Origin: Alphaproteobacteria bacterium
GTDB taxonomy: Bacteria; Pseudomonadota; Alphaproteobacteria; Caulobacterales; Aquidulcibacteraceae
Reading direction: 5' to 3'
DNA: 64,000 nucleotides
Assembly (NCBI GenBank): GCA_031399165.1
Contig: JANNOO010000033.1
Span: forward strand, 5,830-69,829
The notes under the pieces are model-generated. The model worked only from the letters and a program-made list of their open reading frames with translations. It had not been told where the DNA came from and did no database searches. Positions 2,513 through 22,229 of this stretch are shown one piece after another (positions within the stretch are counted from its first letter, which is position 1; the number at the start of each line of letters is the position of its first letter). Made by a program: the position numbers and the translations under genes.

Positions 2513-2614
2513 CGAATCACCTCGACGCAGTCTGCGCCCGAAATCCTGAACGCGTTGTTGAGCGCCATCGGCGTTAACGAGACATTGACGAGGCGCAGCG
2601 AATGCTCACGCCCC

Positions 2615-3397: not shown

Positions 3398-3975
3398 CCG
3401 TCCGCCTCCGCCCCCTCGCCGCTGCCGATTACGACGCCGTTCGCGAATGGCGCAACCGGCCGCATGTCGCGGCGATGATGTACACGGATCATGAGATCAG
3501 CGCCGGCGAGCACGCCCAATGGTTCGCCGGCGCGCTGATCGACCCGACGAAACGCTACTTCATTATCGAAACGCTGGAAGAGCACGGCAGGGCCGGCGCG
3601 GGTTTGGCGGGCTTCACGCAGATCGACGGCGAAAGCGGCGCGTCGTGGGCGTTCTATCTCGCTGATGCCGAAACGCGCGGCCGCGGGCTGGGGGCCAGAA
3701 CCGAGTTCCTGATGCTCTGCAAGGCGTTTGACGAGTTGGGGCTGGCCGTTCTGCGCTGCGAGGTGTTGGCTTTCAATACACGCGTTGTGGCGCTGCACGA
3801 ATCCTTCGGCTTCCGCCAAACTGGCGTGCTGGCCGCTCACATCATGAAAAACGGCGCGCCGCAGGATGTGGTCACAATGGAAATGCGGCGTGAGGACTGG
3901 GCGTTCGCGCGGGGCATGGCCGCCCATCGCCTCGGGATGCGCCCCGGCGCAGCGCAGGCGGCAAAGTCTGCCTAG
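3394..3975 (+). CDS. pseH: GNAT N-acetyltransferase, PseH-like
   Basis: 193 aa. MTVRLRPLAAADYDAVREWRNRPHVAAMMYTDHEIS..EHAQWF resembles the PseH/FlmH-type N-terminus. It is translationally coupled to the cytidylyltransferase. Confidence 0.7.
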   Translation: MTVRLRPLAAADYDAVREWRNRPHVAAMMYTDHEISAGEHAQWFAGALIDPTKRYFIIETLEEHGRAGAGLAGFTQIDGESGASWAFYLADAETRGRGLGARTEFLMLCKAFDELGLAVLRCEVLAFNTRVVALHESFGFRQTGVLAAHIMKNGAPQDVVTMEMRREDWAFARGMAAHRLGMRPGAAQAAKSA

Positions 3976-6362: not shown

Positions 6363-8231
6363 CTAGCGCTTACCGGCCGGATGCCGTTTGTTTTTCTTGG
6401 GCTTGCCCGGGCCTGCGTGGTTTGCATCCTTGTGTTTGCGATCGCTTCTAGCGGCGGGCTTCGCGGATGGCGCACGGTGCGGCGGCTTATTCTCGCGTGG
6501 CTTGGGGCGACCGGCGTAGTCGGCGCTGTTTGTGTGCTTTGGCCGCCGCTCCTGCTGGGCGCCCGGCGCTCCATTAATGCGCGTGACGTGGATTGATTTC
6601 TCGATGTGGCCGCCCTTGCCGATCCGCGCGAGGAATTCGTCCACGATGGCGGCGTCGATTTCGACGTAGGTTTCGTTCTGATCGATGCGGATTGAGCCGA
6701 GCTGGCGCTTGGTTATGCCGCCGGCTTTGCACAGCATAGGGATCAGCCATTTCGGCTCGGCGTTGCGGCCGCGCCCCACTGATAGCGAAACCCATGCGCC
6801 GGGCGTGAAGTTATCCGGCGCGTCGATCGGCGGGCCGCGCTCTGTGCGTTCGGTGCGTTCGGCGCGGGGCGCACGCTCTTGCCCCCGCTCGGGCCGGTCC
6901 TGCGATGGCGACCATGTTTGCGTGGGCGCGAGATCTTCGGGCGCGGCTTGCCCCTTGCGATAAAGCCGCACGAAGGCGGCGGCGATGTTCGCCGCATCAT
7001 GCTGCGCGAGCAGCGCGCGAACGACACTTTGCTCAGCGGCTGCCGGTTGGGTTTCCAACAGCGGATCGGCGAGCAGGCGCTCATCATCGCGGCGGCGGAT
7101 ATCGTCGGCTGAAGGCGGTTCGCCCCAACTGGCTTCGATGCCGGAATCGCGCAGCAGCCGCTCGGTGCGGCGGCGCGCGGAAAACGGCACGATCAACACA
7201 CTCGCGCCCTTGCGCCCCGCGCGGCCGGTGCGGCCGCTGCGGTGCAAAAGCGCTTCGCGGTTCTTGGGCAGATCGGCGTGAATGACCAGTTCGAGATCGG
7301 GCAGATCAATGCCGCGCGCGGCTACGTCCGTGGCGACGCACACTTGCGCCCGGTGATCGCGCAGCGCCTGCAGCGCATGCGTGCGCGCATTTTGGCTGAG
7401 TTCGCCCGAAAGCGCGACGACGGACATACCGCGATTGGAAAACCGGCTTTCCAGCCGCGTCACGGCCGCGCGTGTGCCGCAGAACACAAGCGCATTCGTA
7501 GGATTGTAGAAGCGCAGCACGTTGAAGATCGCGTTCTCGGATTCGTGCCCCGCCGCGACGAGCGCGCGATATTCGATATCGGCGTGCTGCTTCTGAGCGC
7601 TCACCGTGTTAACGCGGATAGCGCCGCGTTGATAGGTATTGGCCAGCGCTTCGATGGCGCGCGGCATGGTCGCGGAGAACATCAGGGTGCGGCGTTCGGC
7701 GGGCGATGCTTCGAGGATGAATTCAAGTTCCTCGCGGAAGCCGAGATTGAGCATCTCGTCCGCCTCGTCCAGCACGACGGCTTTCAGGCTCTTCATGTCG
7801 AGCGAGGCGCGCCGGATGTGATCGACCAGACGCCCCGGCGTGCCGACGACGATGTGCGCGCCCTGCCCCAAGGCGCGCCGCTCATCACGCATGTCCATGC
7901 CGCCGACACAGGACGCAATGCGCCCGCCAATAGGCGCAAAAAGCCATTCAAGCTCGCCGCGCACCTGCATGGCGAGTTCGCGCGTCGGCGCGATAATCAG
8001 CGCCAGGGGCGCGCCGGCGGGACCAAGCCTGCTTTTGCCGTCAAGCAAGGTGTTCGCCACGGTCAGCCCGAAAGCGACGGTTTTGCCAGAGCCGGTTTGC
8101 GCCGAAACGACCAGGTCCGCGTTCTGGACGTCCGGCGCCAGAACCGCGCCCTGCACGGCGGTCAGCCCATCAAACCCACGCGCGGAGAGCGCGCCCGCAA
8201 GCGCACGACCTACATTTTCAAAAACGGACAT
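6363..8231 (-). CDS. DEAD-box ATP-dependent RNA helicase with DbpA-type C-terminal RNA-binding domain and basic tail
   Basis: Motifs AQTGSGKT, PTRELA, VLDEAD, SAT and HRSGRTGRAG. Start set at MSVFENV (8231) rather than the upstream ATG at 8291. Confidence 0.9.
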   Translation of the reverse strand: MSVFENVGRALAGALSARGFDGLTAVQGAVLAPDVQNADLVVSAQTGSGKTVAFGLTVANTLLDGKSRLGPAGAPLALIIAPTRELAMQVRGELEWLFAPIGGRIASCVGGMDMRDERRALGQGAHIVVGTPGRLVDHIRRASLDMKSLKAVVLDEADEMLNLGFREELEFILEASPAERRTLMFSATMPRAIEALANTYQRGAIRVNTVSAQKQHADIEYRALVAAGHESENAIFNVLRFYNPTNALVFCGTRAAVTRLESRFSNRGMSVVALSGELSQNARTHALQALRDHRAQVCVATDVAARGIDLPDLELVIHADLPKNREALLHRSGRTGRAGRKGASVLIVPFSARRRTERLLRDSGIEASWGEPPSADDIRRRDDERLLADPLLETQPAAAEQSVVRALLAQHDAANIAAAFVRLYRKGQAAPEDLAPTQTWSPSQDRPERGQERAPRAERTERTERGPPIDAPDNFTPGAWVSLSVGRGRNAEPKWLIPMLCKAGGITKRQLGSIRIDQNETYVEIDAAIVDEFLARIGKGGHIEKSIHVTRINGAPGAQQERRPKHTNSADYAGRPKPRENKPPHRAPSAKPAARSDRKHKDANHAGPGKPKKNKRHPAGKR

Positions 8232-8386
8232 TGCGTGGTCTTTCGGGCCAGATGCGCTTTCACCAGGCCGGATCGGTCGCGGCAAATGCATAGGCCATCG
8301 CGCCGCAAAATACGAGACGCGTCACCTTCATTTCGCCTGAGGCGATTTTGTTCCCTCACGCGCCGTCCCAATAACGTGATCGCTCC

Positions 8387-8402
8387 CAAACAGATCTGTT
8401 TG
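8387..8402. promoter_or_regulatory. 16-bp perfect palindrome CAAACAGATCTGTTTG (candidate operator)
   Basis: The sequence is exactly self-complementary. It lies 56 nt upstream of the OMP start (8458), in the helicase/OMP divergent intergenic region. Confidence 0.35.
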
Positions 8403-8457
8403 CAACCTTACGCGTATGCGGTCAGTCCCAGTAAGGGATAGGATTGAGGGACTCGTC

Positions 8458-9291
8458 ATGCAGAAATCGACATTGTCAGCTGCCCTTTTGGCAGTGGGCG
8501 CTTTGGCCTGCGCGCTGCCTGCGCAAGCACAATCGTGGACCGGCCCCTATGTTGGCGGTCACATCGGCTACAGTTTTCTGTCTGAGGACGACAGCGAAAG
8601 CCTGTCGTTCGATACCAATCTGGACGGCACCTACAGCGAGAACGTCAACACAACCGGCGGGGCAAATGCGTTCTCGCCCGGTTTCTGCGGCGGAACGGCA
8701 AACGGGAATAATGCCGCCGCCGGCTGTGGCGAGGATGACAATGGCGCGTTCGAAGGCGGTGTACGCGCCGGTTACGACTGGAACTTCGGCGGGACCCTAG
8801 TTGGCGTAGTCGGCGAGTATTCGTTCTCGAACGTCGAAGATAGCGTAACTGGCTTTTCAACCACACCGGCCGCCTACACGTTCACGCGCGAACTGAAATC
8901 GATCGCTGCGCTGCGCGGACGGGTTGGGTACGAGTTCAACAATACGCTGCTTTACGCAACGGCGGGCTACGCCTGGGCCGATGTCGATCATAGCTTCAGC
9001 ACAACCAACACAGCCAACAGCTTCACGCCGCGTGGCGGCGACGACACCAACGGCTATCAGATCGGCGCCGGCGCCGAGCGCATGTTCGGCGAACGTTGGT
9101 CATTCGGCGCGGAATATCTGTTCACGTCGCTGGACGACGACGATTACACGGTTCGTGTCGGACCGGGCACGGCGCCGGTCACCAATCCGTTCCGCGTCGT
9201 GAACACCAATGGCACGGATATGCAGCGTTCGAATGACAAGTTCGAGCTTCACGCTATTCGCGCGACGGTAGCCTACCGCTTTGGACAGTGA
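8458..9291 (+). CDS. outer-membrane beta-barrel protein (Omp25/OmpA-like porin family)
   Basis: Signal peptide MQKSTLSAALLAVGALACALPAQA, alternating aromatic/Gly beta-strand pattern, and a C-terminal ...RATVAYRF-type motif. ATG at 8458 lies within ORF 8416..9291. Confidence 0.8.
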   Translation: MQKSTLSAALLAVGALACALPAQAQSWTGPYVGGHIGYSFLSEDDSESLSFDTNLDGTYSENVNTTGGANAFSPGFCGGTANGNNAAAGCGEDDNGAFEGGVRAGYDWNFGGTLVGVVGEYSFSNVEDSVTGFSTTPAAYTFTRELKSIAALRGRVGYEFNNTLLYATAGYAWADVDHSFSTTNTANSFTPRGGDDTNGYQIGAGAERMFGERWSFGAEYLFTSLDDDDYTVRVGPGTAPVTNPFRVVNTNGTDMQRSNDKFELHAIRATVAYRFGQ

Positions 9292-9311
9292 TATTTGCAG
9301 CAATACTTAGC

Positions 9312-9345
9312 AACGGGCGGCCTTCGGGCCGCCCGTTTTGTTTTT
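9312..9345 (+). terminator. intrinsic terminator after the OMP gene
   Basis: AACGGGCGGCC-TTCG-GGCCGCCCGTT followed by TTGTTTTT. The stem and tail are almost identical to the terminator at 6320. Confidence 0.8.
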
Positions 9346-9413
9346 GGGTAGTCCAAAGACGGATTTAGCGCGAAGCAGACGCAAAACGTCCGCTCCCGGC
9401 GAATGCGGACGCT

Positions 9414-10493
9414 TTAGGCGGCGAACGCGCGCTCGATCAGGTCTTGCAGCGTGCGCGCGTCCAGCGCTTCGGGATTCTTCTCGCTTGAATACGAGAAGCC
9501 TTCCGGCGCTGGAACGCCGCCGCCGATGATGTAGCGCTCGCGCAGGCTGGTGGCATCAAGCGGCAGGATCACGAAACGATCGCTCAATTCCAGCGTGGCG
9601 TGCGCATCATCGCTCGGCACCATGGTTTCGTGCAGCTTTTCGCCGGGCCGGATGCCGATGATCTTGTGCGGAAGGTGCGGCGCAACGAGGCGCGCGAGGT
9701 CAATCGTGCGGATCGAGGCGATCTTGGGCACAAACACTTCCGCGCCTTCCATCATCGCCAGGCTGGACAGGACAAAATCGACGCCCTGATCGAGTGTGAT
9801 CCAAAACCGCGTCATCCGGTCGTCGGTGATCGGCAGATGGCTGGCGCCATCGGCCGCCAATTTGCGGAAGTAAGGCACGACGGAGCCGCGTGAACCGACG
9901 ACATTGCCGTAGCGCACGACCGAGAACTTTGCGCCGCCCTCGCCTGAGAGGTTATTCGCCGCGACGAATATCTTGTCCGACGCCAGTTTCGAGGCGCCGT
10001 AGAGATTAATCGGGTTGGCGGCCTTATCGGTCGACAGCGCCACGACCTTCTGCACGCCGCGCTTGATTGCCGCCGTGGCCACGTTCTGGGCGCCGACCAC
10101 ATTGGTCTGGATACACTCGAACGGGTTATACTCGGCGATCGGCACGTGCTTCAGCGCCGCGGCGTGGATGACGTAATCGACATCGCGCATCGCCATTTCA
10201 AGGCGGGCGGCGTCTCGCACATCGCCGATAAAATAGCGCATGAACGGATATTTGGCCGTCGGGAAGGTCTGGGCCATTTCGTATTGCTTCAGCTCATCGC
10301 GCGAAAACACGATCAGGCGCCTGGGCGCGAACTGCTCGGCTGCACGCCGCACGAAATGCTGGCCGAATGAGCCGGTGCCGCCGGTGATCATCACGGTCTT
10401 GCCGTTCAAATCGGCGTAAGGGGCGCGAAAGGAACGTGAACGCAGACGCCGCTCAAGCTCATCAATAGGTGTGGCGGCCGGACGTTCTGGCAT
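9414..10493 (-). CDS. pseB: UDP-N-acetylglucosamine 4,6-dehydratase (inverting), PseB/FlmA-like
   Basis: 359 aa. KTVMITGGTGSFGQHFV Rossmann motif, the extended SDR pattern (STDKAANPINLYGASK) and the conserved FSRDELKQ segment of PseB/CapD-type enzymes. Confidence 0.9.
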   Translation of the reverse strand: MPERPAATPIDELERRLRSRSFRAPYADLNGKTVMITGGTGSFGQHFVRRAAEQFAPRRLIVFSRDELKQYEMAQTFPTAKYPFMRYFIGDVRDAARLEMAMRDVDYVIHAAALKHVPIAEYNPFECIQTNVVGAQNVATAAIKRGVQKVVALSTDKAANPINLYGASKLASDKIFVAANNLSGEGGAKFSVVRYGNVVGSRGSVVPYFRKLAADGASHLPITDDRMTRFWITLDQGVDFVLSSLAMMEGAEVFVPKIASIRTIDLARLVAPHLPHKIIGIRPGEKLHETMVPSDDAHATLELSDRFVILPLDATSLRERYIIGGGVPAPEGFSYSSEKNPEALDARTLQDLIERAFAA

Positions 10494-10547
10494 GCACTCT
10501 CTCCGGCGCGGTATCGTTGGCCGATTTGGTTAATTGGAGGTCAAGAC

Positions 10548-11636
10548 TTGAGCCAAGCGCTTGACCAGCCCGGCGCGCTGCGCCAAGCGCCAGGCGTGAA
10601 CACGCTCCCGCCCCTCCTGCTGCGCGCCGACGCTGGCGGCGACCTGGGGTCTGGGCATGTGATGCGCCTCGTGGCCCTCGGCGAAGCGTGGGTCGATGCG
10701 GGTGGCGCATGTGTGCTTGCCACGGCCTCGCTCCCACAGGCGCTTATCGCACGGCTGGGCGACAATCGTGGTTTCGTCCTCCACACGATCGAGGCGCCCG
10801 CATGGAGCGGCGCGGACGCTGCGGCGCTGACCGCCGTGGCGCGCAAGTTTTCGACCCGGTTGGCGGTGGTCGATTCCTACTTGTTCGACGCGCCTTATCT
10901 GGCGGCGCTAAAGGCGGCGGGTTTGCATGTCGTGGCGGTCGATGATTTGGCCCGCCTGCCGGCCTATCCGTGCGATGTGCTGGTTAATCCAAACCTCTCG
11001 GGAGAGGCCGCGCGATACGAAGGCAAGGCCGGGGACGCGCGCCTGTTGCTCGGCCCGCGCCACGTGATGCTGCGGCGGGAATTCGCCATACATCGCTCAA
11101 GCGTACGCTCCATCGCGCCGATCGCCAGACGATTGCTAGTGACGTTCGGCGGCGTCGATCCCAAGAATGGCGGCGCGCTTGCTTTGGAGGCGCTCTCGGC
11201 CCTGCCTGAACTCTCCGTTGAGTTTGTCATCGGCGCCGCCAACGCGCGCGGCGACGAACTGGCGGCGAAAGCGCGCGCGTTAACCAATGTGCAAATCTTC
11301 CGCGACACGCGGGACATGGCCACGCGCATGATGGCCTGCGAGATGATGCTTTCGGCGGGCGGCACGACGGTATGGGAAGGCGCGGCGCTTGGCGCCCCGA
11401 TGATGCTGGCCGCCGCAGCGCCGGAAGAAGCCGAAGCCGCCGCGCGCCTCGCCAAGGGCGGCCTGTGCCAATTTCTCGGCGGCATCGAAACGCTTACGCC
11501 AACCTCTATCGCGCGGGCGATCAACGATTTCGCTCACGACATGGCCGCCCGGGCGCGATCGAGCGTGCTGGGCCGCGAACTGGTTGATGGTTACGGCGCC
11601 GAGCGCGTGATCGAGGCGATCCGCGCCGCGCTTTGA
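10548..11636 (+). CDS. pseG: UDP-2,4-diacetamido-2,4,6-trideoxy-beta-L-altropyranose hydrolase, PseG-like (GT-B fold)
   Basis: LLLRADAGGDLGSGHVMRLVALGEAW is the PseG N-terminal signature, with a GT28-like C-terminal half. The start is uncertain: TTG at 10548 or in-frame GTG at 10596. Confidence 0.75.
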   Translation: MSQALDQPGALRQAPGVNTLPPLLLRADAGGDLGSGHVMRLVALGEAWVDAGGACVLATASLPQALIARLGDNRGFVLHTIEAPAWSGADAAALTAVARKFSTRLAVVDSYLFDAPYLAALKAAGLHVVAVDDLARLPAYPCDVLVNPNLSGEAARYEGKAGDARLLLGPRHVMLRREFAIHRSSVRSIAPIARRLLVTFGGVDPKNGGALALEALSALPELSVEFVIGAANARGDELAAKARALTNVQIFRDTRDMATRMMACEMMLSAGGTTVWEGAALGAPMMLAAAAPEEAEAAARLAKGGLCQFLGGIETLTPTSIARAINDFAHDMAARARSSVLGRELVDGYGAERVIEAIRAAL

Positions 11637-11677
11637 GTTTTTCGCTTTGAACAAAGGTTAATGAGCACGGCGATTGC

Positions 11678-12775
11678 TTGGCAGTACCTGTCATGGTCCA
11701 AACCGCGCCCGCTCTGATACACAATGTGCAAGCATTGCGCGCAATCGCGGCGATGTTCGCCGTGCTCGCACATCTGCAAGGATATCTGGCGGAGATCTTC
11801 GGATTGACCGTGCCATTTGGGGGCGTCGATCTGTTCTTCGTCATCAGCGGCTACATCATGGCCTACACGACAACGGACCGGGTCACGCCGCGTGTATTCA
11901 TGATCCGGCGCATCTCCCGCATCGTGCCGCTTTACTGGGTGGCCACGCTCGGCGTGTTTTCGCTCGCGCTGATCGCGCCGAGCGTCGTCAAATCGACGAA
12001 CGCCGATTTCGGCGAACTCATCCAATCGCTGCTGTTCATTCCGTTCGCCAAGACCAATGGCATCGTCCAGCCCACGCTATTCGTTGGCTGGACGCTGAAC
12101 TATGAGATGATGTTCTACATCATCTTCGCCGGCGCGTTGCTGCTGCGCTCGGAGAACACGCGCTTTATCGTGGTTTCCCTAGTGCTTATCGGCCTGGTGG
12201 CGATCGGGCAGATATTCGAGCCAAAGAGCGTGTTGGCCGACTTTTACACGTCGAGCATTGTGCTGAACTTCCTGCTCGGCATGGTGGTCGCGCGCGTGAT
12301 GCCAATGATGCCGCGCACGGCCCCTCGCGGTCTGCTGCCGGTCGTGCTTGTGCTGGGTGCGCTGGCGCTGGCTGGAGCCACGCTGATACCGCTATTTCGT
12401 CCCGATATGCCGTCCGTCATCACCTGCGGCGCGCCGTCGGCTTTGCTGGTTGGCCTTGCCGTCCTGGCCGAACGCTGGGGCTGGCGCATCACCTCGCCGA
12501 CATTCGTGCTGCTGGGCGACGCGACCTATTCGATCTACCTCACACATCCGTTCATCGCGGAGGCAGTTCAGAAAATCACCGAGCCCTTGCACGCCGGGCC
12601 TATTGGCGCGTTCGGCTTCCTGATCGTGGCGATGGTGATTTCCGCGCTGGTGGGCATCGTGGTTTACAAGATGGTCGAAGTTCCACTCTGCGGCTGGGCC
12701 AAGCGCCTGCTGTCCGCGCAGCGCTCCAAAAAGGCGGCCGCCGCGCCGGAAGAGCGGTCACGCCGCGCCGCCTAA
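11678..12775 (+). CDS. acyltransferase family 3 integral membrane protein (O-acyl/acetyltransferase)
   Basis: 365 aa and polytopic. N-terminal LRAIAAMFAVLAHL and FFVISGYIM motifs are typical of Acyl_transf_3. Alternative ATG at 11693. Confidence 0.8.
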   Translation: MAVPVMVQTAPALIHNVQALRAIAAMFAVLAHLQGYLAEIFGLTVPFGGVDLFFVISGYIMAYTTTDRVTPRVFMIRRISRIVPLYWVATLGVFSLALIAPSVVKSTNADFGELIQSLLFIPFAKTNGIVQPTLFVGWTLNYEMMFYIIFAGALLLRSENTRFIVVSLVLIGLVAIGQIFEPKSVLADFYTSSIVLNFLLGMVVARVMPMMPRTAPRGLLPVVLVLGALALAGATLIPLFRPDMPSVITCGAPSALLVGLAVLAERWGWRITSPTFVLLGDATYSIYLTHPFIAEAVQKITEPLHAGPIGAFGFLIVAMVISALVGIVVYKMVEVPLCGWAKRLLSAQRSKKAAAAPEERSRRAA

Positions 12776-14218: not shown

Positions 14219-15361
14219 TCAGGCCTTTGGCGCCTCCGCCTTGCGCATATCTTCCAGGACGTTCTTTAGCTGACCGAGCGCCTGCTCATCACCAGCTTCC
14301 AGCGGATGGCGCTTTTTAAGCCGCTCGAACGCGTCTACCGACAACATGAGCTGTTCCTTGGCGTCAGGCCCCTGCAGCGTGGCCAGCTTGTAATGGCCTA
14401 CGGCCACATCGCGCAGGCGCTCCAGATCATTCGGAGCGGCGGCGGCCAGCTTCTTTACCAAGGCCAACGACTCGCTGAGCGCCTTTCGGGCGCCAACGCC
14501 ATCCTCGAGCTGTAAGCAGACAATGCCGAGTTCGTCGAGCGCGACCGCCTGCTCCCGCTCGCCCTGAGCCGCCGCGACCGCGGACTTGGCCGCGTCATAC
14601 GCCTGCTGCGGCTGGCCAGTGCCGGAATAAAGGCGGCGCAACATCACGAGCGTGACGAAGTCGCGGGGATCAGCGACGCGCGCCTTTTCCAGCGCCTCCA
14701 TCGCCGAAGGCAGATCGCGCAGGCATTCCAGCACCGCCAGATTGCGCCATGCGCCTTCACGCCCACCATTTTCCTGCGCCTGCCGGCGCAGATCTGCGCG
14801 AGCGCCGTCGAAATCTCCGGACGCGATCTTGCGCCGCGCTGCGCTCAGCGCCGGGGCTTCCGAGGCAATCAGGGTTTCAGCCAGCAGCACAAACGAACGC
14901 ATGGGCGGCTCTGTGGCAAACTTCACGCCCGCCGCGACGGCCTTGTCGCGCTCGCCCGTAAGCAGCGCGGCCAGACGCTCCGAATCCTGCTTGGCGCGTG
15001 CGACGCCGGTTTCAGTGTCGCGCTGGATTTTCTGTACGGGATCTGGCGTGCGTTGCGGCGCGGGACGCGATGGCGGCTCCTTGGCGACGGCGCGCGCAGG
15101 CGGCGCCTTGGCTTCCTTAGGCGCACGCTCCTTCTTTGGCTTGAACAAAGCGCCAATCATGCCGAACAGCATAAACACTAGGACAAGCGCTATGGCGCCC
15201 GCACCGCCGACAAGCGCGATGTCCGGCGCTGTGCTGACAGCCGCCGCAGCCTGCGGACTGGCCTGTTCGATATAGCCGCGCAACAGCGCGGCGATTGGTG
15301 CAATTTGTTCCATGCCGATCTCCCGTGCCGTTCCTAGCACGGGTCGCGGGGCTGTGAACAT
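14219..15361 (-). CDS. membrane-anchored TPR-like repeat protein, function unknown
   Basis: One TM helix (IALVLVFMLFGMIGALF), a Pro/Lys/Ala-rich linker, then Ala/Leu-rich helical repeats. An alternative start at 15313 (MEQIAPIA) is possible. It lies 4 nt downstream of 15365..16618. Confidence 0.6.
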   Translation of the reverse strand: MFTAPRPVLGTAREIGMEQIAPIAALLRGYIEQASPQAAAAVSTAPDIALVGGAGAIALVLVFMLFGMIGALFKPKKERAPKEAKAPPARAVAKEPPSRPAPQRTPDPVQKIQRDTETGVARAKQDSERLAALLTGERDKAVAAGVKFATEPPMRSFVLLAETLIASEAPALSAARRKIASGDFDGARADLRRQAQENGGREGAWRNLAVLECLRDLPSAMEALEKARVADPRDFVTLVMLRRLYSGTGQPQQAYDAAKSAVAAAQGEREQAVALDELGIVCLQLEDGVGARKALSESLALVKKLAAAAPNDLERLRDVAVGHYKLATLQGPDAKEQLMLSVDAFERLKKRHPLEAGDEQALGQLKNVLEDMRKAEAPKA

Positions 15362-15364
15362 CAG

Positions 15365-16618
15365 CTAGCTGGGTTCCGGCTGATCGGAAAACCGCGGCGC
15401 CGTCCGGTCGTCTGAAAGGCCGACATCTGACGCAGCAATGCCGGTGCGGGCCTTCCAGAGCTTGCGCCAATTCTGCGGCCAGGAGTGTGAGGCGGCCATG
15501 GCGCCGGCGAGTTCATCCTTGGCGTCGATCAGAAACATGGTATCGCGCGCCATGCGGTCTTCGGGCCGCGCCTTTGCCCGCACCGCGTCAGCCACCACGA
15601 ACCGCGCACGGGCGTTGGAAAACGCTTCCGGCGTCAGGCAAAAGCGGGCTTTGCGCAGCGCTGCGTCCACCGCGTCAAAACGCGGGGCGCCCCAGCCCAT
15701 ATGAATCGAACGATCGAGGAAGAACGCGAAATCGATTTCCGTGGGCTCCAGTCCAGCTTCACGCCAGGAGCGCTCCAGGCGCTCGACCACGTAGCGGAAC
15801 CAGGCGCTATCGCCCCAAGCGGCCTCGTCGTACGCCGCCTGTGTCTCTGGCAGCGCGCCCAATTGCGCGAACGCCGCGCTCCACGCCGCCCTCTGCCCCG
15901 GCTTGGCGCACACACTTTCGACAAGCGCACGCGCCGCGGGATATTTGTGCTTGCTGGCGATTCCGAGCTCTTTCGCGGTCTTCAACGTGAAGAGTTTTTC
16001 CGCGTCTTCAGCGCCGTTTGCCGCGAACACAGAGAGCACGGTATCGCGGTCAAGCCGATAGAGTACGCCGAGTAATTCTCCGCCCCAACCGAGCGTTTTG
16101 CCGTACGGCCCCCACGTCAGCACCGAACCCTGATCGCCGGTGAACTTTACGCAGACGTTCCACTCGACGCGGTCGTAATCGCCGCCCTCCATTGTGCGCG
16201 CCAGCGTCTGGGCGCGTTCGAGCGCACCGGGCGGCTTTTCGCCCGTAACCGCCTGCCAAGCCTCGACCGTCATATGGCCGTCGATTTCTATCGCAGCGCC
16301 GCGGCACGCGGCCACCGCGCGCATCGCCTCGGCGGTGGCGCGCGTGTAGCGGCCATCGAGCGTGACAGGCGTGACGCCGCATTTTTCCGCGCGCTGATCG
16401 ATCGCCGCCTGGAGACGACCGATTGGCCCCCATTTCGAGTCTTGGATCGTCACGCGTGCGCCGGGCTCGGCATAACGGATTAGGATCGCATCGGCCGAGG
16501 GGTCGCCCCCGCCCGCGCGCGCGGAAGGGCCGGCCAGCGCGAACGCCAGCGCCGCAGCGCCGGAGACCGACGCCGCAGATATCCCGAACCGGGTGAGAAC
16601 CCTTATAAATCCACGCAT
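15365..16618 (-). CDS. secreted protein with a possible PG-binding-like segment and a lysozyme/chitosanase(GH46)-like core (weak)
   Basis: Signal peptide ...ALAFALAGPSARA. The segment TMEGGDYD...FTGDQGSVLTWGPYGKT and the later ..AAYDEAAW...FFLDRSIHMGWG resemble the E...D-x-G...T-x-G layout of GH46/lysozyme-fold enzymes. This is pattern recognition only. Confidence 0.5.
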   Translation of the reverse strand: MRGFIRVLTRFGISAASVSGAAALAFALAGPSARAGGGDPSADAILIRYAEPGARVTIQDSKWGPIGRLQAAIDQRAEKCGVTPVTLDGRYTRATAEAMRAVAACRGAAIEIDGHMTVEAWQAVTGEKPPGALERAQTLARTMEGGDYDRVEWNVCVKFTGDQGSVLTWGPYGKTLGWGGELLGVLYRLDRDTVLSVFAANGAEDAEKLFTLKTAKELGIASKHKYPAARALVESVCAKPGQRAAWSAAFAQLGALPETQAAYDEAAWGDSAWFRYVVERLERSWREAGLEPTEIDFAFFLDRSIHMGWGAPRFDAVDAALRKARFCLTPEAFSNARARFVVADAVRAKARPEDRMARDTMFLIDAKDELAGAMAASHSWPQNWRKLWKARTGIAASDVGLSDDRTAPRFSDQPEPS

Positions 16619-16706: not shown

Positions 16707-17234
16707 TTAACCGTCCTGCGCGGTCCAACGCAGGGCTTGGGTATTGTAGCCTCGGCTCTGCAAGCGCCCGATCAGGTCATCCTTCACCGCGGCGTCCAGC
16801 TTCGGCGCCCGCGCGAGTATCCATAGGAACCGTCCCGAGGGCTCGCCCACGAGCGACCACGAATAATCATCGGCGCGGTCCAGCACCCAGTAATCGCCCT
16901 CAAACGGGCCAAAGAAAGAAACCTTCAGCTTCGCGTTGTTCGGCGGATCGACGACCCGCGCGACACCCTTGGCGATCTTCTCCTTCCCTGCCGGATCGCC
17001 CTCGCGACAGGTGTTGAGCACCGTAATCTTGCCGTCGGGCCGCTTGGCGTATTCCGCCGTCACGCCCTCGCACCCTTTTTCGAACCAGTTTTCGTACCGG
17101 GCTATCTCGTACCAGCGTCCGATATAGCGATCGACCTCCACCGCCTTCACGGACAGCGGCGGTTCGGCGCTACGGTTGACGGGCGGCGACGCGCAGGCAG
17201 TAAGAGCCAGCGCGGCAAAGATGGCTTTCCTCAT
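16707..17234 (-). CDS. blc: bacterial lipocalin (outer-membrane lipoprotein Blc)
   Basis: Lipobox-like ALALTAC, then VDRYIGRWYEIARYENWFEKGC and the DYWVLD..DYSW motifs of Blc. Confidence 0.85.
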   Translation of the reverse strand: MRKAIFAALALTACASPPVNRSAEPPLSVKAVEVDRYIGRWYEIARYENWFEKGCEGVTAEYAKRPDGKITVLNTCREGDPAGKEKIAKGVARVVDPPNNAKLKVSFFGPFEGDYWVLDRADDYSWSLVGEPSGRFLWILARAPKLDAAVKDDLIGRLQSRGYNTQALRWTAQDG

Positions 17235-17240
17235 GGCTGC

Positions 17241-18056
17241 CTATACGCGCAAAGCCTGATCTGGATCGTTCATCAGCGCATGGACGTGCCGCTCCAGCGG
17301 CCCCCATTTCTTGTAAGTTCGCACATGATCCTGCGCGCCAGCCCAAGCGGCCGCGAACGCGGCGCGCGCGCCGTCAACTGCGAAGGCCGCCGCCAGCGGA
17401 TCGATCGATATCCTGATCGTGAAGACTATAGCGCCGGTTTTGGGAAGTTTGCGGATCGTCTGGCGCTCCACCCGCAGATGCAGAAGGCCGGCCGCCTCAA
17501 GGACCGGCGTGGCGTTGGCGCGGGCGATCAGAGGCGCCTGGCTGGGCGTGAACCGCTCGGGCCCCGCCTGCACCGTCCAGTTAAACCGCTCCATGACGAC
17601 GCCGGGCACAACCGCTTCGAACATCCGCACTATGCGGGCCGCCATCCCCTGCGCCCCCGCCGGCCCGAGCCGGTCGGGCACAGGACCGTGCAGATGGCTG
17701 ACGGGGCGGCCGATATTGTCCGCCAGCGACCAGAATGTCGGCGCACAAAGCACCGCGGCGCTCAGCAGCCAATCCTCACCGCGCTTCTCCATGATGCAAA
17801 AGTCGTCCGACACGAGCGACGCACCTGTGGGTAAATCTTGCGCGCCGACGAGCGCCGCGAGTTCGGCTTGGGCTAGCGCCGACCCTTCGGTCTCCGCGAA
17901 CACTTTTTCGCGATGGCGCGCCAGCAGCGCGCGCTTTTCCGGCAGCGCGGCTGTTTCCGTGTCAGGCGCGAGCCAAGCCTCGGGCGAGATTGGCTTCAAT
18001 CCCACGGTGAAATCCGGAGGCCCAGCCATAAACGGTAGATAAGGCGGACGGCGCAT
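17241..18056 (-). CDS. DUF3445 family protein (heme-dependent oxidative N-demethylase family)
   Basis: 271 aa. The overall pattern (...FTVGLKPISPEAWL..., ..LLSAAVLCAPTFWSLADNIGRP..LHGPVP) matches my memory of DUF3445. Confidence 0.65.
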   Translation of the reverse strand: MRRPPYLPFMAGPPDFTVGLKPISPEAWLAPDTETAALPEKRALLARHREKVFAETEGSALAQAELAALVGAQDLPTGASLVSDDFCIMEKRGEDWLLSAAVLCAPTFWSLADNIGRPVSHLHGPVPDRLGPAGAQGMAARIVRMFEAVVPGVVMERFNWTVQAGPERFTPSQAPLIARANATPVLEAAGLLHLRVERQTIRKLPKTGAIVFTIRISIDPLAAAFAVDGARAAFAAAWAGAQDHVRTYKKWGPLERHVHALMNDPDQALRV

Positions 18057-18218
18057 GCTGTTTTCTAGCCGCTCGCAGCCCGGTGGGGCAGAGGCGCTGC
18101 GGAAAAGTCACACAGCGACAGTCACAGCAGCGTCGCATTGCCTGATCGTCATGCTTCGGCTTAAAGTTTCTCCAGAATGTAGGCCTGCGGTCGCGTTGGG
18201 CGTCCGCAATCAGATCGT

Positions 18219-18986
18219 GTGAGGGTCTTTCCGCTAATGCGTCAGATTGTGGTGATCCACTCCCTACGCGCAAAGGAAGACGCGGCCGTTTTCGTAAGAC
18301 GGCTGCAGGCCGAGGGATTCACCGTCCCTTGGAACCCTGAATCCGGCGGGCGGTACGTGAGCGGCGCTGAGAAGCCGGAAGCGGCCCCCTGCACGCTCGT
18401 GCTTTGGACCAAGGATGCGCCGACGTCGCGCTGGGTGCGGGAATACGCGATCGCTGCGCATAAGCGTAACGCACTGGTCGAGGTGCTTATTGAACGGACA
18501 GTGTCGCCGATTGACGCCGCGGTTGAGCCGATCGATTTCTCCGATGTCGCCGACGAGAAAACCGAAGCGCGTCTCATGAAAGAATTGATCGTCCGCGTTG
18601 AAGCCAAAACGGGCGAACCCAACGGACGTCTGCCGATGCGCAAGGAAGTTCGTCCGTTCGCGGCGCTCGGCGGGTTTGGTTTTATCATTACCTGCACGAT
18701 CGCAACGATGCCCGGCCTGCAGCCCAGCTCCGAAGGGCTGATCACGCCGCAGAACACGGCGCAGGCGCCAATCGGCGAGATGGCCCTTGCTCAGGGCGGG
18801 CCGGTTGTCAGCCCCTCCGAACTGGCGCCCGCGGAAATGGCGCCTGTGACGGTAAAATACCGGCCAACGCGCCTGGGTGTTGAAGCGGTGATCCGCGTTC
18901 GCGTCGTAGCCGACCCCTCAATCGTCAGCGAAGATGACGCCGTGGTCTACCGGCTGGTCGATGTTCCTGAACTGACCGTCAGCTAA
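18219..18986 (+). CDS. TIR-like domain membrane protein
   Basis: IVVIHSLRAKEDAAVFVRRLQAEGFTV ... CTLVLWTKDAPTSRWVREYAIAA...ALVEVLIERT follows the bacterial TIR_2 pattern (vlWS..s..S.WV..E). A TM helix (FAALGGFGFIITCTIATM) and a ~90-aa tail follow. The likely start is ATG 18237. Confidence 0.55.
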   Translation: MRVFPLMRQIVVIHSLRAKEDAAVFVRRLQAEGFTVPWNPESGGRYVSGAEKPEAAPCTLVLWTKDAPTSRWVREYAIAAHKRNALVEVLIERTVSPIDAAVEPIDFSDVADEKTEARLMKELIVRVEAKTGEPNGRLPMRKEVRPFAALGGFGFIITCTIATMPGLQPSSEGLITPQNTAQAPIGEMALAQGGPVVSPSELAPAEMAPVTVKYRPTRLGVEAVIRVRVVADPSIVSEDDAVVYRLVDVPELTVS

Positions 18987-19447
18987 TCGCGCGGCTCGCC
19001 GCGGCGTGATCGTAACCAATGCAAGATCGCCCAGGCGTGCGCTTCGTGGCGCATCTTGAGCGCGGCCTCGTGCGGCGCCGCCCAGACCAGGCAATGGTTA
19101 GGCTCGGTAGGCTCGCTATCGGCGGCTGACAGCTCAACCTGATAGAACGCTGCAAGGTTGTTCCGCGGCTCGCCTTTCGGCGTCCAGTACTGACCCGCGC
19201 GGCCGATCATGCGGTCGGGCCAAACCGTCAGGCCAGTCTCCTCGGTGAATTCGCGCATCAGCGCGCCGGCTTCATCTTCGTCGCGCTCTACCCCGCCGCC
19301 TGGAAGATCGTACTCAAACGGAGCCGCCGCGCCGATCCTCACGATCGCGATCTGGTCGGCGCGGGCGCATATGCCATGCACCACCTGCCGCTCAATATAG
19401 GTAAGGCCGGACTGGGTCTGCCCGAACTGCAAAGCATAGCGTGTCAA
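18983..19447 (-). CDS. NUDIX hydrolase
   Basis: Nudix box GGGVERDEDEAGALMREFTEETG; 154 aa. Confidence 0.8.
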   Translation of the reverse strand: MTRYALQFGQTQSGLTYIERQVVHGICARADQIAIVRIGAAAPFEYDLPGGGVERDEDEAGALMREFTEETGLTVWPDRMIGRAGQYWTPKGEPRNNLAAFYQVELSAADSEPTEPNHCLVWAAPHEAALKMRHEAHAWAILHWLRSRRGEPRD

Positions 19448-19498
19448 AAATCACCCGATGATCGGCGAGCGGCTTATCCGGCGAGGGTGGCCACCCGG

Positions 19499-19831
19499 TC
19501 AATACACCGCCAGCGCCGCCAGCGCTTTTTCCAGCGCCGCCGCCACGCTTTGCGACGCCGCCGCGCCGCCGGTTCGCTCGGCAGACTCGCACACATCCGC
19601 CAGCGCAACCAAGCCAATGCCGCGCGCCGAGCCTTTCAGTTTATGCACCGCATCTGCCCAACCAGGCGCGCCAGGCGCGGCGAGCGCGGCGCGCCATTCA
19701 TCGGCCTGGCCGCGAAACAAGCCTGCCACTTCGCTTTGCAGCGCTGTATCGCCTGCGGTCATCATGTCGAAATGAGCGCGATCAAGCGCAGGAAGGATGG
19801 CGGCTTCAAGCATGCCGCTCAAACTGGACAA
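19499..19831 (-). CDS. Hpt (histidine phosphotransfer) domain protein
   Basis: 110 aa with the HKLKGSARGIG phospho-His motif. Confidence 0.75.
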   Translation of the reverse strand: MSSLSGMLEAAILPALDRAHFDMMTAGDTALQSEVAGLFRGQADEWRAALAAPGAPGWADAVHKLKGSARGIGLVALADVCESAERTGGAAASQSVAAALEKALAALAVY

Positions 19832-19880
19832 TATGCTTTAAGAGCGGCTTAAGACGGCTTCTCTGACCCTCAGCGCTTCG

Positions 19881-21995
19881 CTATTTCCGAACAAACAGCC
19901 GGGGAAACATGCGCGCCGCCACCGCTGGCGCGGCGAACCACGGATCGCGATCCTTGCGCCGTGCACTTTCGAGATCAGCGCCCTCAAACGCCGCGAGGTC
20001 GCGAAGGTCTGGATGCAGCATCGCCCGATCATCCCGCGCGCCGCGCCGCCAGCCGGACATCAGCATATCTGCGCACCAGCGGCGATGTTCGAGGTCCGCG
20101 GCCGCATCAGGAATCTCATCGGGACCAAGCGTGGGCAAAGCGCCCCTCTCTTTCGCGCCGGCCGGGCGCCAGCCCAAGGACCAGAGCTTGATCACTGCAT
20201 GATCGGCGCTGGTGCGATTGGCGCTGATGTAAACCTCGCTCAATTCGTCCCAGGGGCGCTGGGCTGGCCCATCCGGCGATGGGATAAACGCGCCGCGCTC
20301 CAGCACGCCCTGCGCAACACCAGCGCGCAGCGCGCTCAGCGCGTCGTCGCCGAACGTCTCGGCGAATTCGCTTTCGAGCGCGGCGATGTCATCACCCGCT
20401 ACGCTCGAAGGCCGCGTCATGCGCGAGAGCTTTTGCCCAAGGGTGCGCCCCTTCCGCAACGCGGCGGCGTATGCGTCCGCGTGCTGAAACAAGACGCACG
20501 TATGGATATAGCCTTCATGCAGCCGCCTTGCCGCTTCGTCCGGCCCGCGGTCCACCAGCGCGCCAGCCGATAGCACCTGGCGCGGCTGGGCAAACGGAAT
20601 CACCCGTACGCCACGCGCGCTCTCCAGCGTAATAGCGATCGTTTCTTCCTTGCTTTCGCGCACGATCAGCGGCGGCGCATCGCCTGCCCCGCGCCCGCAC
20701 AGCACCGCCGCGCAGCGGAGCGTCTCCTCGTCCGATGGCCATGACACGAGCGCCGCCGTGAACGGCCCACGCGCGCCAGCGACGTCATTGAGCGGCGCCC
20801 ACGGATTTCTTTGGGCCCGCCAGTCATAGGCGTTGAACGTGATGTCCGCTTTCCAGAACTCGTCCTCGTTCGCTGCTGGATAGGCCGCTTGAAACTCTTG
20901 CCCGGCCGCTTGCGGGTCGCGCGCGAACACCGAAACGCGCGGCGCCTCCAGGCCCAGCGCCCAGCCGAGCCGGAAAAAACGCGCCGTCACCGCCAACGCC
21001 GCCTCGTCCCATCCCACGACCGCCAGATGCAGGCGATTGTGTCCGCGCCGGGCGGCCTCCTCGAACAACAACACGCCGGCAAGCACCTGCCGCGCCGCCA
21101 CCTCGGGCAACGAGAACATGTCAGCGGCGTGCAGCCTTCCCCCTGCCGGCAGATCGCGGCGCAGCGCCTCGCTTTCCAGCCGGACCAGCACATCGCCCGG
21201 CGCGGAGCGCTTGCGCAGATTGAGCGCGGTGGCGGCGACGCCAAGATTTTCCGAATCGCCGGCGCTGATCGCAACGATGCGGTCAGCGGCGCGGACGCCG
21301 GCGCCGGTAAGCACGGCGCGGTCGGTCGGCGATCCGGCGCTGAGCGCGACGCCGTCGGCGGCCAGAGCATCAACTTCCGCAGAGGATACGTTGCGGCGCA
21401 AGAGCACGACGGCCTTACGCCGTGGCCGGTTGGGCCGGGCGATGTCGCGCGCCAGCGCTTCTGCCTCAACGCCCTCGCCGGTTACGATAACGTGGCCTGC
21501 GCCAATGGCGCGCAAGGCGTGCGCTACAGCGCCGAGCAATTGCGTCCAGAAACCAAAAGCCAGCGTCATAATCGCCAACAACGCAAAGGCAGTCTGCGCG
21601 ACCACAAAACGAATATCGGGATCGTTGAAGTCGCAAAGTTTGCCGCTGCGAATCCGGCAGATGCTGTCGGACACCACAGTGACCAGATATTCGGGCGAGC
21701 CTGGCGCCATCTGCGCGGCGGCGCGCTCGGCGCCCGGCTGGTCGAGCCGCTGGCGCATTTCGTCATAGGCCGCACTGGCGCCCAGCCCGAGCCAGAGCAA
21801 CCCTACCGCCGCGCCCATCAGCAGACGGACAGGCGCCGCGCGCTGGTGCGCAAGCCGCAGGGTGCGCACCGAGACCGCATTGGAAAGAAACCGTCTGATG
21901 GCGTTGATCGGGCCAGGCCGGGCGCGCGTGCGCCGCCAGCGCCGCCCCTCCTCGGCAGGACTTTTCGGGCCGTCCGGGCCGTTCTGGCGCGCCAT
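19881..21995 (-). CDS. membrane protein: 2 TM + tandem TrkA-N/RCK-like Rossmann domains + C-terminal RyR-type domain
   Basis: TM helices near LLMGAAVGLLWLGLGA and FALLAIMTLAFGFW. Rossmann-like stretches are HVIVTGEGVEAEALA and LHLAVVGWDEAAL. The C-terminus has WDELSEVYISANRTSADHAVIKL and EHRRWCADMLMSGWRRG..D...LHPDL....F......RKDRD, as in bacterial RyR-domain proteins. Confidence 0.65.
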   Translation of the reverse strand: MARQNGPDGPKSPAEEGRRWRRTRARPGPINAIRRFLSNAVSVRTLRLAHQRAAPVRLLMGAAVGLLWLGLGASAAYDEMRQRLDQPGAERAAAQMAPGSPEYLVTVVSDSICRIRSGKLCDFNDPDIRFVVAQTAFALLAIMTLAFGFWTQLLGAVAHALRAIGAGHVIVTGEGVEAEALARDIARPNRPRRKAVVLLRRNVSSAEVDALAADGVALSAGSPTDRAVLTGAGVRAADRIVAISAGDSENLGVAATALNLRKRSAPGDVLVRLESEALRRDLPAGGRLHAADMFSLPEVAARQVLAGVLLFEEAARRGHNRLHLAVVGWDEAALAVTARFFRLGWALGLEAPRVSVFARDPQAAGQEFQAAYPAANEDEFWKADITFNAYDWRAQRNPWAPLNDVAGARGPFTAALVSWPSDEETLRCAAVLCGRGAGDAPPLIVRESKEETIAITLESARGVRVIPFAQPRQVLSAGALVDRGPDEAARRLHEGYIHTCVLFQHADAYAAALRKGRTLGQKLSRMTRPSSVAGDDIAALESEFAETFGDDALSALRAGVAQGVLERGAFIPSPDGPAQRPWDELSEVYISANRTSADHAVIKLWSLGWRPAGAKERGALPTLGPDEIPDAAADLEHRRWCADMLMSGWRRGARDDRAMLHPDLRDLAAFEGADLESARRKDRDPWFAAPAVAARMFPRLFVRK

Positions 21996-22153: not shown

Positions 22154-22229
<76 letters not shown>

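Follow-up and report, generated by a model that had tools for sequence, protein, structure and literature searches.

The stretch of DNA considered here, positions 18,219 to 21,995 of a 64-kb alphaproteobacterial sequence ('the window', 64,000 nucleotides in all), carries four protein-coding genes beside a tRNA-Lys gene: a gene for a TIR-like membrane protein on the plus strand and, convergent with it on the minus strand, genes for a NUDIX hydrolase, an Hpt (histidine phosphotransfer) protein, and a 704-aa membrane protein with RCK and RyR-type domains. An earlier reading made from the letters alone (here the sequence-only reading) had joined all four into one signalling module derived from nicotinamide adenine dinucleotide (NAD), with a producer, a sensor, and a degrader of signals of the ADP-ribose (ADPR) or cyclic ADP-ribose (cADPR) type. 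We conclude instead, with a probability of about 0.6, that the 3.8 kb holds two independent units lying side by side, one formed by the TIR-like gene with the NUDIX-Hpt genes and the other by the 704-aa gene, because the first is conserved without the second and the neighbours of the 704-aa family vary. The features are these, with the source of each in parentheses.

18237-18986, plus strand: TIR-like membrane protein, from its likely start; longest open reading frame (ORF) 18219-18986 (ORF list, Pfam, orthologue alignment).
18983-19447, minus strand: NUDIX hydrolase (ORF list, Pfam, Nudix box).
19499-19813, minus strand: Hpt protein, from its likely start; longest ORF 19499-19831 (ORF list, Pfam, orthologue alignment).
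19838-19852, no strand assigned: TTAA-N7-TTAA direct repeat, TTAAGAGCGGCTTAA, in the gap between the 704-aa and Hpt genes (motif scan).
19881-21995, minus strand: 704-aa membrane protein (ORF list, AlphaFold2, Foldseek).
20586-21497, minus strand: tandem RCK (TrkA_N-type Rossmann) part of the 704-aa protein, about residues 167-470 (Pfam, Foldseek).
19896-20558, minus strand: helical linker and RyR/R12-type domain of the 704-aa protein, about residues 480-700 (profile search, hhalign, pairwise alignment).
22154-22229, plus strand: tRNA-Lys(CTT) (ARAGORN, Rfam).

The four ORFs are all present at the coordinates first given, as are the adjoining tRNA-Lys gene, the CTAA at 18983-18986 in which the stop codons of the convergent TIR-like and NUDIX genes overlap by 4 nt, and the minus-strand gaps of 49 nt (704-aa gene to Hpt) and 51 nt (Hpt to NUDIX) measured between longest ORFs. 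Orthologues and public gene calls favour later starts for two of the genes, ATG 18237 for the TIR-like protein (MRQIVV, 249 aa; GTG 18219 would give 255 aa) and ATG 19813 for Hpt (MLEAAI, 104 aa; the longest ORF begins at TTG 19831), which widens the spacing of the 704-aa and Hpt genes from 49 to 67 nt. A 158-nt spacer parts the 704-aa gene from the divergent tRNA-Lys(CTT) gene. The domain names first proposed are borne out by Pfam for TIR_2, just (29.1 bits against a cut-off of 28), for NUDIX (40.9 against 21.1), for Hpt (35.2 against 24.6), and for TrkA_N at residues 169-275 of the 704-aa protein (25.7 against 23.8); RyR (PF02026), at 14.8 bits, falls under its gathering cut-off of 27.4, yet the family profile described below supports it.

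We compared contigs encoding relatives of the TIR-like protein at falling identity to that of the window, with the following gene orders.

L007/8 (TIR-like 68% identical): FlbT/FlaF, 417-aa gene, HODM-like (minus), TIR-like (plus), NUDIX (minus), Hpt (minus), another gene.
L010-13 (69%): gene order as in L007/8.
L014-17 (63%): gene order as in L007/8.
L097 (46%): TIR-like (plus), NUDIX (minus), contig end.
L101-103 (40%): two 4HBT genes, HODM-like (minus), TIR-like (plus), NUDIX (minus), Hpt (minus), NnrU (minus).
L104-106 (45%): lipocalin (minus), TIR-like (plus), NUDIX (minus), Hpt (minus).
L107-110 (32%, Glu retained): ImuB-like cassette, TIR (plus), NUDIX (minus), 2Fe-2S ferredoxin in place of Hpt.

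No unit persists more widely than the convergent TIR-like/NUDIX pair, which all eight lineages have when the window is included; it is joined by Hpt in six (the window and five related lineages), where Hpt is the next gene in every locus with enough contig other than L107-110. The 704-aa gene is in none of these related TIR-like/NUDIX loci. Co-conservation is thus sustained for the TIR-like and NUDIX genes, usually with Hpt, and not for the RyR/RCK gene, which is absent from the related loci and has no constant partner elsewhere. The left neighbours of the pair vary (HODM-like, lipocalin, ImuB-like), and the gene beyond Hpt/NUDIX differs in almost every lineage, with at least six different genes in that position. 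Across these loci, identity to the window is 32-69% for the TIR-like protein, 66-89% for NUDIX, and 53-72% for Hpt.

Several properties of the pair bear on how much this co-conservation means. The TIR-like/NUDIX spacer ranges from a 4-nt overlap to 30 nt, leaving almost no neutral room for a rearrangement breakpoint, so that neutral persistence is plausible, and the 66-89% identity of NUDIX suggests that the lineages probably belong to one alphaproteobacterial group. More distant TIR_2 relatives occur in 75 metagenomic loci, gathered with an 8-sequence TIR-like query, informative on distant relatives only, and amounting to 321 kb; these loci lack a Nudix box, and tblastn with NUDIX, Hpt, the 704-aa protein, and HODM matches nothing in them. 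With probably one group sampled, a convergent arrangement, tight packing, and unequal rates of change, the co-conservation appears real but of limited weight. The TIR-like, NUDIX, and Hpt genes are best read as a lineage-conserved neighbourhood of an alphaproteobacterial group, Caulobacterales- or Hyphomonadaceae-like to judge from the named relatives.

The 704-aa family is rare, comprising at least seven protein clusters in 5.8 billion proteins whether searched by single sequence or by profile, and two further genome loci (in metagenome-assembled genomes (MAGs) of Terricaulis and of an alphaproteobacterium) bring it to at least about nine members; Ala/Arg-rich words saturate the word-index search, and the true size of the family may be underestimated. 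A scan of genome contigs gave three loci, and no homologues were found in the plasmid, phage (by tblastn), viral-contig, or JGI metagenome collections. The contexts of the homologues are as follows.

L002 (Hyphomonadaceae MAG): transglutaminase/proteasome-like genes upstream, ParDE directly downstream.
L003: homologue (52% identity) in a conjugative element with a type IV secretion system; a 512-aa TIR_2-ParA-like protein is encoded 78 nt beyond it.
L004/5: MatE, MFS, and acyl-CoA dehydrogenase genes.
L006 and L020: CoA-transferase upstream, a giant RTX/haem-peroxidase protein downstream.
L019: serpin, acyltransferase, and unknown genes.

A hidden Markov model scan of the ORFs places a TIR domain in only one of the six other contexts, L003, and finds a single TIR-like ORF in the whole window. 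The L003 protein, in the pair at 8001-11783, has a strong TIR_2 match (76.7 bits), the canonical Glu (SYVEREL), and a ParA/MinD-like ATPase part, and we regard this pairing with a 704-aa homologue as a genuine lead, in a single instance. The 704-aa gene is best read as a rare accessory gene that lies between Hpt and tRNA-Lys in the window genome only.

Some further observations concern these contexts. The L003 pair adjoins DNA methylase, NOV_C, and S1-P1 nuclease genes. The giant secreted-type protein that follows the 704-aa gene in L006 (8071-12375) and L020 (10408-17595; 2395 aa) has animal haem peroxidase, RTX, cadherin-like, and Big_9 domains. In L002, an Hpt orthologue (54% identity), NnrU, and tRNA-Lys(CTT) lie about 4-5 kb upstream of the 704-aa homologue (features at 2521-3813, 10105-10673, and 17145-18076), and a DUF4062 gene lies about 7 kb downstream of it; DUF4062 has been described as a family of TIR-like NADases (2026 preprint, 10.64898/2026.05.01.722283).

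The position of the 704-aa gene, on the 5' side of tRNA-Lys(CTT), raises the possibility of a tRNA-linked island. No repeat of the tRNA 3' end occurs in the 64 kb, confirming what had been noted before, there are no meaningful flanking repeats around the region, and the composition of the 704-aa gene (GC 0.680; GC at third codon positions 0.769) is like that of the adjacent genes for an ABC transporter; the flanking genes appear to encode an ABC transporter and a molybdate-transport-like system. Without a 3'-end repeat or flanking repeats, and with native composition, a tRNA-Lys-linked island is rejected; no integrase was found either, the wider window having been only partly profile-scanned for integrases. 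PADLOC reports nothing beyond a weak match of NUDIX to PDC-S07, and NUDIX is the only protein matched in PHROGs. The locus resembles Thoeris and other TIR-based defence systems in having a TIR-family gene near a membrane protein with a domain type able to bind cADPR isomers, and differs from them in that the catalytic Glu is missing from the TIR of the window, other genomes do not have these two genes together, and the window offers neither a defence-model match nor features of a defence island or mobile element.

The TIR-like protein consists of an N-terminal TIR-like domain (about residues 8-125), one transmembrane (TM) helix (about 146-166), and a C-terminal tail of about 90 aa. Its single hydrophobic segment, residues 146-164, is preceded by basic residues, which indicates a cytoplasmic N-terminus and an extracytoplasmic tail. 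TIR_2 (PF13676) is matched, weakly, by all ten orthologues, and a profile built from ten close orthologues (62-84% identity) and searched against 1.84 billion representative proteins recovers 2248 proteins at E<=1e-3. In an alignment of the best 69 of these 2248 relatives, most are classic TIR_2 N-terminal domains, with the consensus motifs DIF-SYA, VWWD, VLWS, and S-RWV-x-x-E-A. The canonical catalytic Glu we take to be the one four residues after the Trp (W+4) in the motif W-C-x-x-E, as in SARM1 (W638/E642) and in plant and TLR TIRs. This position, column 76, is Glu in 54 of the 69 relatives and Tyr in the window protein, and Tyr76 is invariant in the ten orthologues. The sequence-only reading had seen the catalytic position kept in SRWVREYA and was off by one residue, since the Glu that it cited is residue 75 (W+3), where relatives have E, D, K, Q, or R.

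The loss is not confined to the closest orthologues. At column 76 the nearest full-length outgroups, P0020-P0026 (38-44% identity), show Y, S, A, or D, and among the full-length relatives aligned Glu is kept there only in the more distant P0027. The positions conserved in the extended family are hydrophobic or structural (G33, V36, W38, V61, W63, W72, V73, and A77), and no polar residue is conserved family-wide in that alignment. An AlphaFold2 model from the 10-sequence alignment has a predicted local distance difference test score (pLDDT) of 36.5 and is not usable for a fold search, and the family sequence profile finds no TIR in the PDB, giving only chance matches to Hjc and SDR proteins. 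Because the W+4 Glu is Tyr76, residue 75 is variable, and no polar residue is conserved, we conclude from these alignments that the TIR-like protein of this clade is a putative TIR-derived pseudoenzyme, its TIR_2 homology clear and its Pfam score marginal. It shares with inactive, scaffold-type TIR domains the TIR_2 homology, the S-x-W-V core, and the beta-strand motifs; it differs from the TIR NADases SARM1, AbTir, and ThsB in having Tyr in place of the W+4 Glu required for NAD+ cleavage, and from NADases and scaffold TIRs alike in the fusion to one TM helix and an extracytoplasmic tail. A membrane TIR protein kept beside a conserved NUDIX gene, with the Glu lost in most lineages, offers a natural series for the decay of a TIR enzyme into a non-catalytic module. 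The deepest TIR-like relative, P0027 (in the region L107 1-6159), has an ImuB-like (IMS/DUF6504) mutagenesis-type cassette on its left flank and an unflagged TIR_2 match in precomputed Pfam annotation (E <= 1e-5).

The NUDIX protein has an intact Nudix box, GGVERDEDEAGALMREFTEETGL (regular-expression match at 19297), and its best PDB match is 2azw, an uncharacterised MutT/nudix protein (E 1.6e-14). It has no NCBIfam equivalog: the best NCBIfam matches are of MutT and pyrimidine deoxynucleoside triphosphate types, far under their cut-offs, and the ADPR-type model NudE matches weakly (E 0.22). The Hpt protein is a single domain with the phospho-His motif HKLKGSA at 19645 (H-x-x-K-G form), and its closest solved structure is 2ooc_A, aligned over almost the whole length (E 4.7e-17). 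We take PDB 2OOC to be ShpA of Caulobacter crescentus, for which a literature search gave no confirmation. The relevant C. crescentus system is the ShkA-ShpA-TacA phosphorelay (PMC7010744). The window Hpt resembles the Hpt member of that relay in its length of about 104 aa, its single domain, its best structural match, and the H-x-x-K-G motif, and the element upstream of it would fit cell-cycle control; the difference is that its surroundings show no identified ShkA or TacA gene.

This element, TTAAGAGCGGCTTAA, sits 25-39 nt 5' of the Hpt start at ATG 19813; the 64 kb contain no second TTAA-N7-TTAA site, and 0.07 such sites would be expected by chance. In Caulobacter and other Alphaproteobacteria the CtrA box has this motif as its consensus. 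In L007, L010/L011, and L015 Hpt is preceded by the same element at an equal distance, and L104-L106 have two copies of it about 75-100 nt 5' of the called Hpt start; there is none upstream of Hpt in L102/L103 and L002, where NnrU precedes Hpt. Given a conserved CtrA-box-type element directly upstream of Hpt, the Hpt-NUDIX genes most likely keep a cell-cycle-type promoter of their own in the window, and this argues against an obligatory three-gene operon of the 704-aa, Hpt, and NUDIX genes. The minus-strand run, first taken for one operon, is therefore not obviously one. An element of this type before a ShpA-like Hpt would link the locus to control by the cell cycle, not to immunity. A weak terminator-like hairpin with a T-run lies at 19452-19471 (minus strand) in the 51-nt gap between Hpt and NUDIX and, if functional, could attenuate NUDIX expression relative to Hpt.

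The 704-aa protein begins with two hydrophobic helices, at about residues 53-78 and 127-160, and the loop between them has conserved C113, G118, C121, and D127. An AlphaFold2 model from a 7-sequence alignment has a pLDDT of 75.5 and a predicted template modelling score (pTM) of 0.71, and when searched with Foldseek against the PDB it matches the tandem-RCK gating-ring proteins TrkA (4g65, E 1e-7, over about 400 columns), GsuK (4gx0-2), Slo1, and MthK, with E values ranging from 1e-7 to 1e-3. All seven homologues match TrkA_N (best E 5e-10). No family member (0/7) has a K+ filter motif (T-x-G-Y/F-G; T-[VI]-G-[YF]-G) at a conserved position, and a canonical K+ channel is rejected on that account. 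The protein is like GsuK, a Geobacter sulfurreducens K+ channel whose subunits each have two RCK domains (PDB 4GX0/4GX1/4GX2/4GX5), in its predicted order of two TM helices and then RCK1-RCK2, and like GsuK and TrkA (4G65, 4J9U) over about 390-465 aligned columns (Foldseek E 1e-7 to 2e-5); it differs from GsuK in the loop with C113, G118, C121, and D127 in place of the T-x-G-Y/F-G filter, and from both proteins in its extra C-terminal RyR/R12 domain, with an identity of only 12-17%. A further apparent difference from both lies in RCK1, where the beta-2 strand that follows GxGxxA (window 21395-21412, residues 195-200) has an Arg-rich end, with L198 and R200 invariant. NAD-binding TrkA_N domains usually end that strand with an acidic residue. 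The Arg-rich end may point to a ligand that carries phosphate, for example NADP, a 2'-phospho nucleotide, or one of ADPR type.

The C-terminal domain is where the family profile adds most to the single-sequence match. Pfam RyR is matched by all seven members (best E 1.8e-4), and the family profile searched against the PDB finds RyR repeats (6uhi, E 3e-8) and the bacterial RyR proteins 6uag and 3nrt (about 1e-3). Phage RyR-domain proteins (RyDEP, PDB 35TM) cleave or sequester 2'/3'cADPR, with H75, W78, H100, and D117 serving ligand recognition and catalysis and H75/D117 forming the catalytic dyad, in a 2026 preprint that also raised the question of what cellular RyR domains do (PMC13232231). 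Against RyDEP, with phage DyoEdafos gp78 as the reference sequence, hhalign of the 704-aa family gives E 4e-4, and the pairwise alignment reaches a score of 111.6, where shuffled sequences give 62.7 +/- 8.9. RyDEP H75, W78, H100, and K116-D117 correspond to H637, W640, H661, and K681-D682 of the 704-aa protein, and P43-W44 of the P-W-D motif to P581-W582, all of them invariant in the seven members; P662, following H661, is a further invariant residue of the domain. The likeness to RyDEP thus consists of ligand and catalytic residues and the P-W-D motif at invariant positions. The differences are that RyDEP is a small soluble phage protein and the 704-aa protein a cellular, membrane-tethered, multidomain one, that the latter has an insertion of about 70 residues in the first half of the domain and a Pfam score under the cut-off, and that its gene lies outside any NAD-salvage (NARP1) or anti-defence context. 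Foldseek against viral structures gives only weak matches to phage RyR domains (E about 0.5), and literature searches for a bacterial RCK and RyR architecture, and for an account of bacterial RyR domains by the Aravind group, gave nothing useful apart from the RyDEP preprint. The suggestion that a RyR-type domain senses ADPR-type nucleotides has thus gained experimental backing in the phage proteins (PMC13232231), and the ligand residues appear to be kept here.

If the two units are independent, each part of the locus would have a role of its own. The TIR-like protein would be a non-enzymatic scaffold or sensor and not an NADase, and Hpt would be a ShpA-type single-domain phosphotransferase serving a hybrid-kinase phosphorelay. 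NUDIX would be a strongly constrained hydrolase, and the two-gene NUDIX-Hpt unit would be transcribed from its own TTAA-N7-TTAA element, probably in a CtrA-dependent and cell-cycle-timed manner. The 704-aa protein would form a multimeric membrane conductance of non-canonical selectivity, with two TM helices and a re-entrant-type loop, with a tandem-RCK gating-ring module, whose opening would be set by nucleotides of NAD(P)/ADP type and ADPR type bound at its RCK and RyR domains, and would be a self-contained sensor and effector with no dedicated neighbouring partner. A RyR/R12 domain on an RCK channel-like protein provides a concrete bacterial case for asking whether ADPR-type nucleotides could control ion flux through R12 domains.

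A number of points weigh against this division into two units or against the roles that go with it. In the 704-aa model, residues 167-704 are of high confidence and the TM/pore part is of low confidence, and the channel activity, ligand binding, cleavage, and phenotype of the protein are all predicted. The ShpA-like character of the window Hpt is likewise inferred, its orthology being drawn from one PDB match, and CtrA binding at 19838-19852 is putative, deduced from the motif. No terminator is predicted in the gap between the 704-aa gene and Hpt, and read-through from the 704-aa gene into Hpt-NUDIX is therefore possible. The adjacency of the TIR-like and NUDIX genes over eight lineages could mean a true functional link, because TIR products are NUDIX-type substrates, and, as P0027 keeps the Glu, a producer-degrader relation may have held ancestrally. 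In two of the seven contexts of the 704-aa family (the window and L003) there is a TIR gene no more than three genes away, which exceeds a naive expectation by chance (a rough figure of about 0.2% for two or more, estimated after seeing the data). Hpt and tRNA-Lys within 7.5 kb of the 704-aa homologue in L002 also make an old regional association possible.

Three other explanations have to be weighed against the same evidence, and the broadest, that of the sequence-only reading, seems to us very improbable. It makes all four genes one NAD-derived module: an ADPR/cADPR-type signal would come from the TIR-like protein, be sensed by the RyR/RCK membrane protein as effector, and be removed by NUDIX, with Hpt as the link to a phosphorelay. 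This reading draws on the four domain types within 3.8 kb, the conserved TIR-like/NUDIX adjacency, the canonical TIR gene after the 704-aa homologue in L003, and the binding and cleavage of 2'/3'cADPR by RyR-domain proteins (PMC13232231) whose residues are matched in the 704-aa protein. Such a module is opposed by the invariant Tyr at W+4 with a variable neighbouring Glu, by the lack of the 704-aa gene from related TIR-like/NUDIX lineages and of Hpt and NUDIX from beside 704-aa homologues, by the ancestral promoter-type element that Hpt keeps, and by PADLOC support amounting to a weak NUDIX match. The tests set beforehand for a producer-sensor-degrader module went against it, both as to conservation of the Glu and as to co-conservation of the genes; the module would have been a new signalling system, and with comparative genomics against it the claim should be dropped. 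A narrower explanation, which we think somewhat unlikely, keeps the TIR-like and NUDIX genes as a true two-component unit (with Hpt as a third member in this clade) in envelope-linked nucleotide signalling or housekeeping, NUDIX processing the product of the TIR or of an ancestral TIR, and leaves the RyR/RCK gene unrelated. ADPR and similar TIR products are classic NUDIX substrates, P0027 keeps the catalytic Glu, and the pair outlasts changes on both its flanks in eight lineages, with TIR identity as low as 32%. However, the genes are convergent and hence not co-transcribed, they evolve unequally (NUDIX 66-89% identical, TIR 32-69%), their spacing from a 4-nt overlap to 30 nt makes neutral persistence plausible, and the lineages sampled are apparently one alphaproteobacterial group; moreover the 75 loci with more distant TIR_2 relatives have no Nudix box, NUDIX has no ADPR-specific signature, and the Glu is lost in the clade although NUDIX is highly conserved.

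The third explanation concerns the 704-aa protein, which could be the effector of a Thoeris-like defence whose TIR partner lies elsewhere or is interchangeable, as in L003, with a cADPR-type signal opening the pore, collapsing the membrane potential, and leading to abortive infection. The RyDEP-type ligand residues in its RyR domain (PMC13232231) and a combination of membrane part and sensor like that of the TM effectors of newer Thoeris types (10.64898/2025.12.03.692087) are compatible with this, as are the patchy and rare family, the L003 homologue 78 nt from a Glu-bearing TIR_2-ParA gene in a conjugative element and by a DNA methylase, and the L002 homologue beside ParDE with a DUF4062 gene 7 kb off. 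We nevertheless hold it quite unlikely, given that a TIR is present in only one of six other contexts, that most contexts are ordinary metabolic and transport genes, that the 704-aa protein has no PADLOC or PHROG match, no homologues in the plasmid, phage, and viral-contig collections, and native composition, and that a systematic survey of TIR systems reports no RyR-type effector (10.64898/2025.12.03.692087). On the preferred reading, with the 704-aa gene as an independent accessory unit, a bolder and in our view unlikely proposal would make its product an undescribed class of bacterial ligand-gated conductance, GsuK-like with a non-K+ pore loop and gated through RyR/R12 by an ADPR-type nucleotide (2'/3'cADPR, cADPR, or ADPR). 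It would then be the first cellular, channel-attached counterpart of RyDEP, a prokaryotic parallel to the nucleotide-modulated ryanodine receptors of eukaryotes, and possibly an effector of TIR signalling; the last role is suggested by the L003 homologue paired with a canonical TIR-ParA gene, a hint, and any link of the 704-aa protein to TIR signalling is speculative.

The genes to the left of the TIR-like gene provide some minor observations. A conserved non-coding block at about 18099-18170, between the HODM-like and TIR-like genes, reads GCGGAAAAGTCACAC ... GTCACAGCAGCGTCGCATTGCC ... CGGCTTAAAG; it is common to L007, L010, and L015, is found in part in L102, and has no Rfam match. A sigma-54 promoter in this block is ruled out, as the GG-N10-GC spacing is absent, and the block may be a regulator binding site for the divergent HODM-like and TIR-like genes. 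A lipocalin gene (16707-17234; Blc-type, Lipocalin_2, 166 bits) lies between the HODM-like and 417-aa genes in the window; it is missing from that position in L007 and L010, and is directly upstream of the TIR-like gene in L104-106. The 417-aa protein (15365-16618) is without a Pfam match and is syntenic, at 78% identity, across all close relatives; a TPR-containing 380-aa protein (14219-15361) comes next, and the FlbT/FlaF flagellin-regulation genes lie further on.

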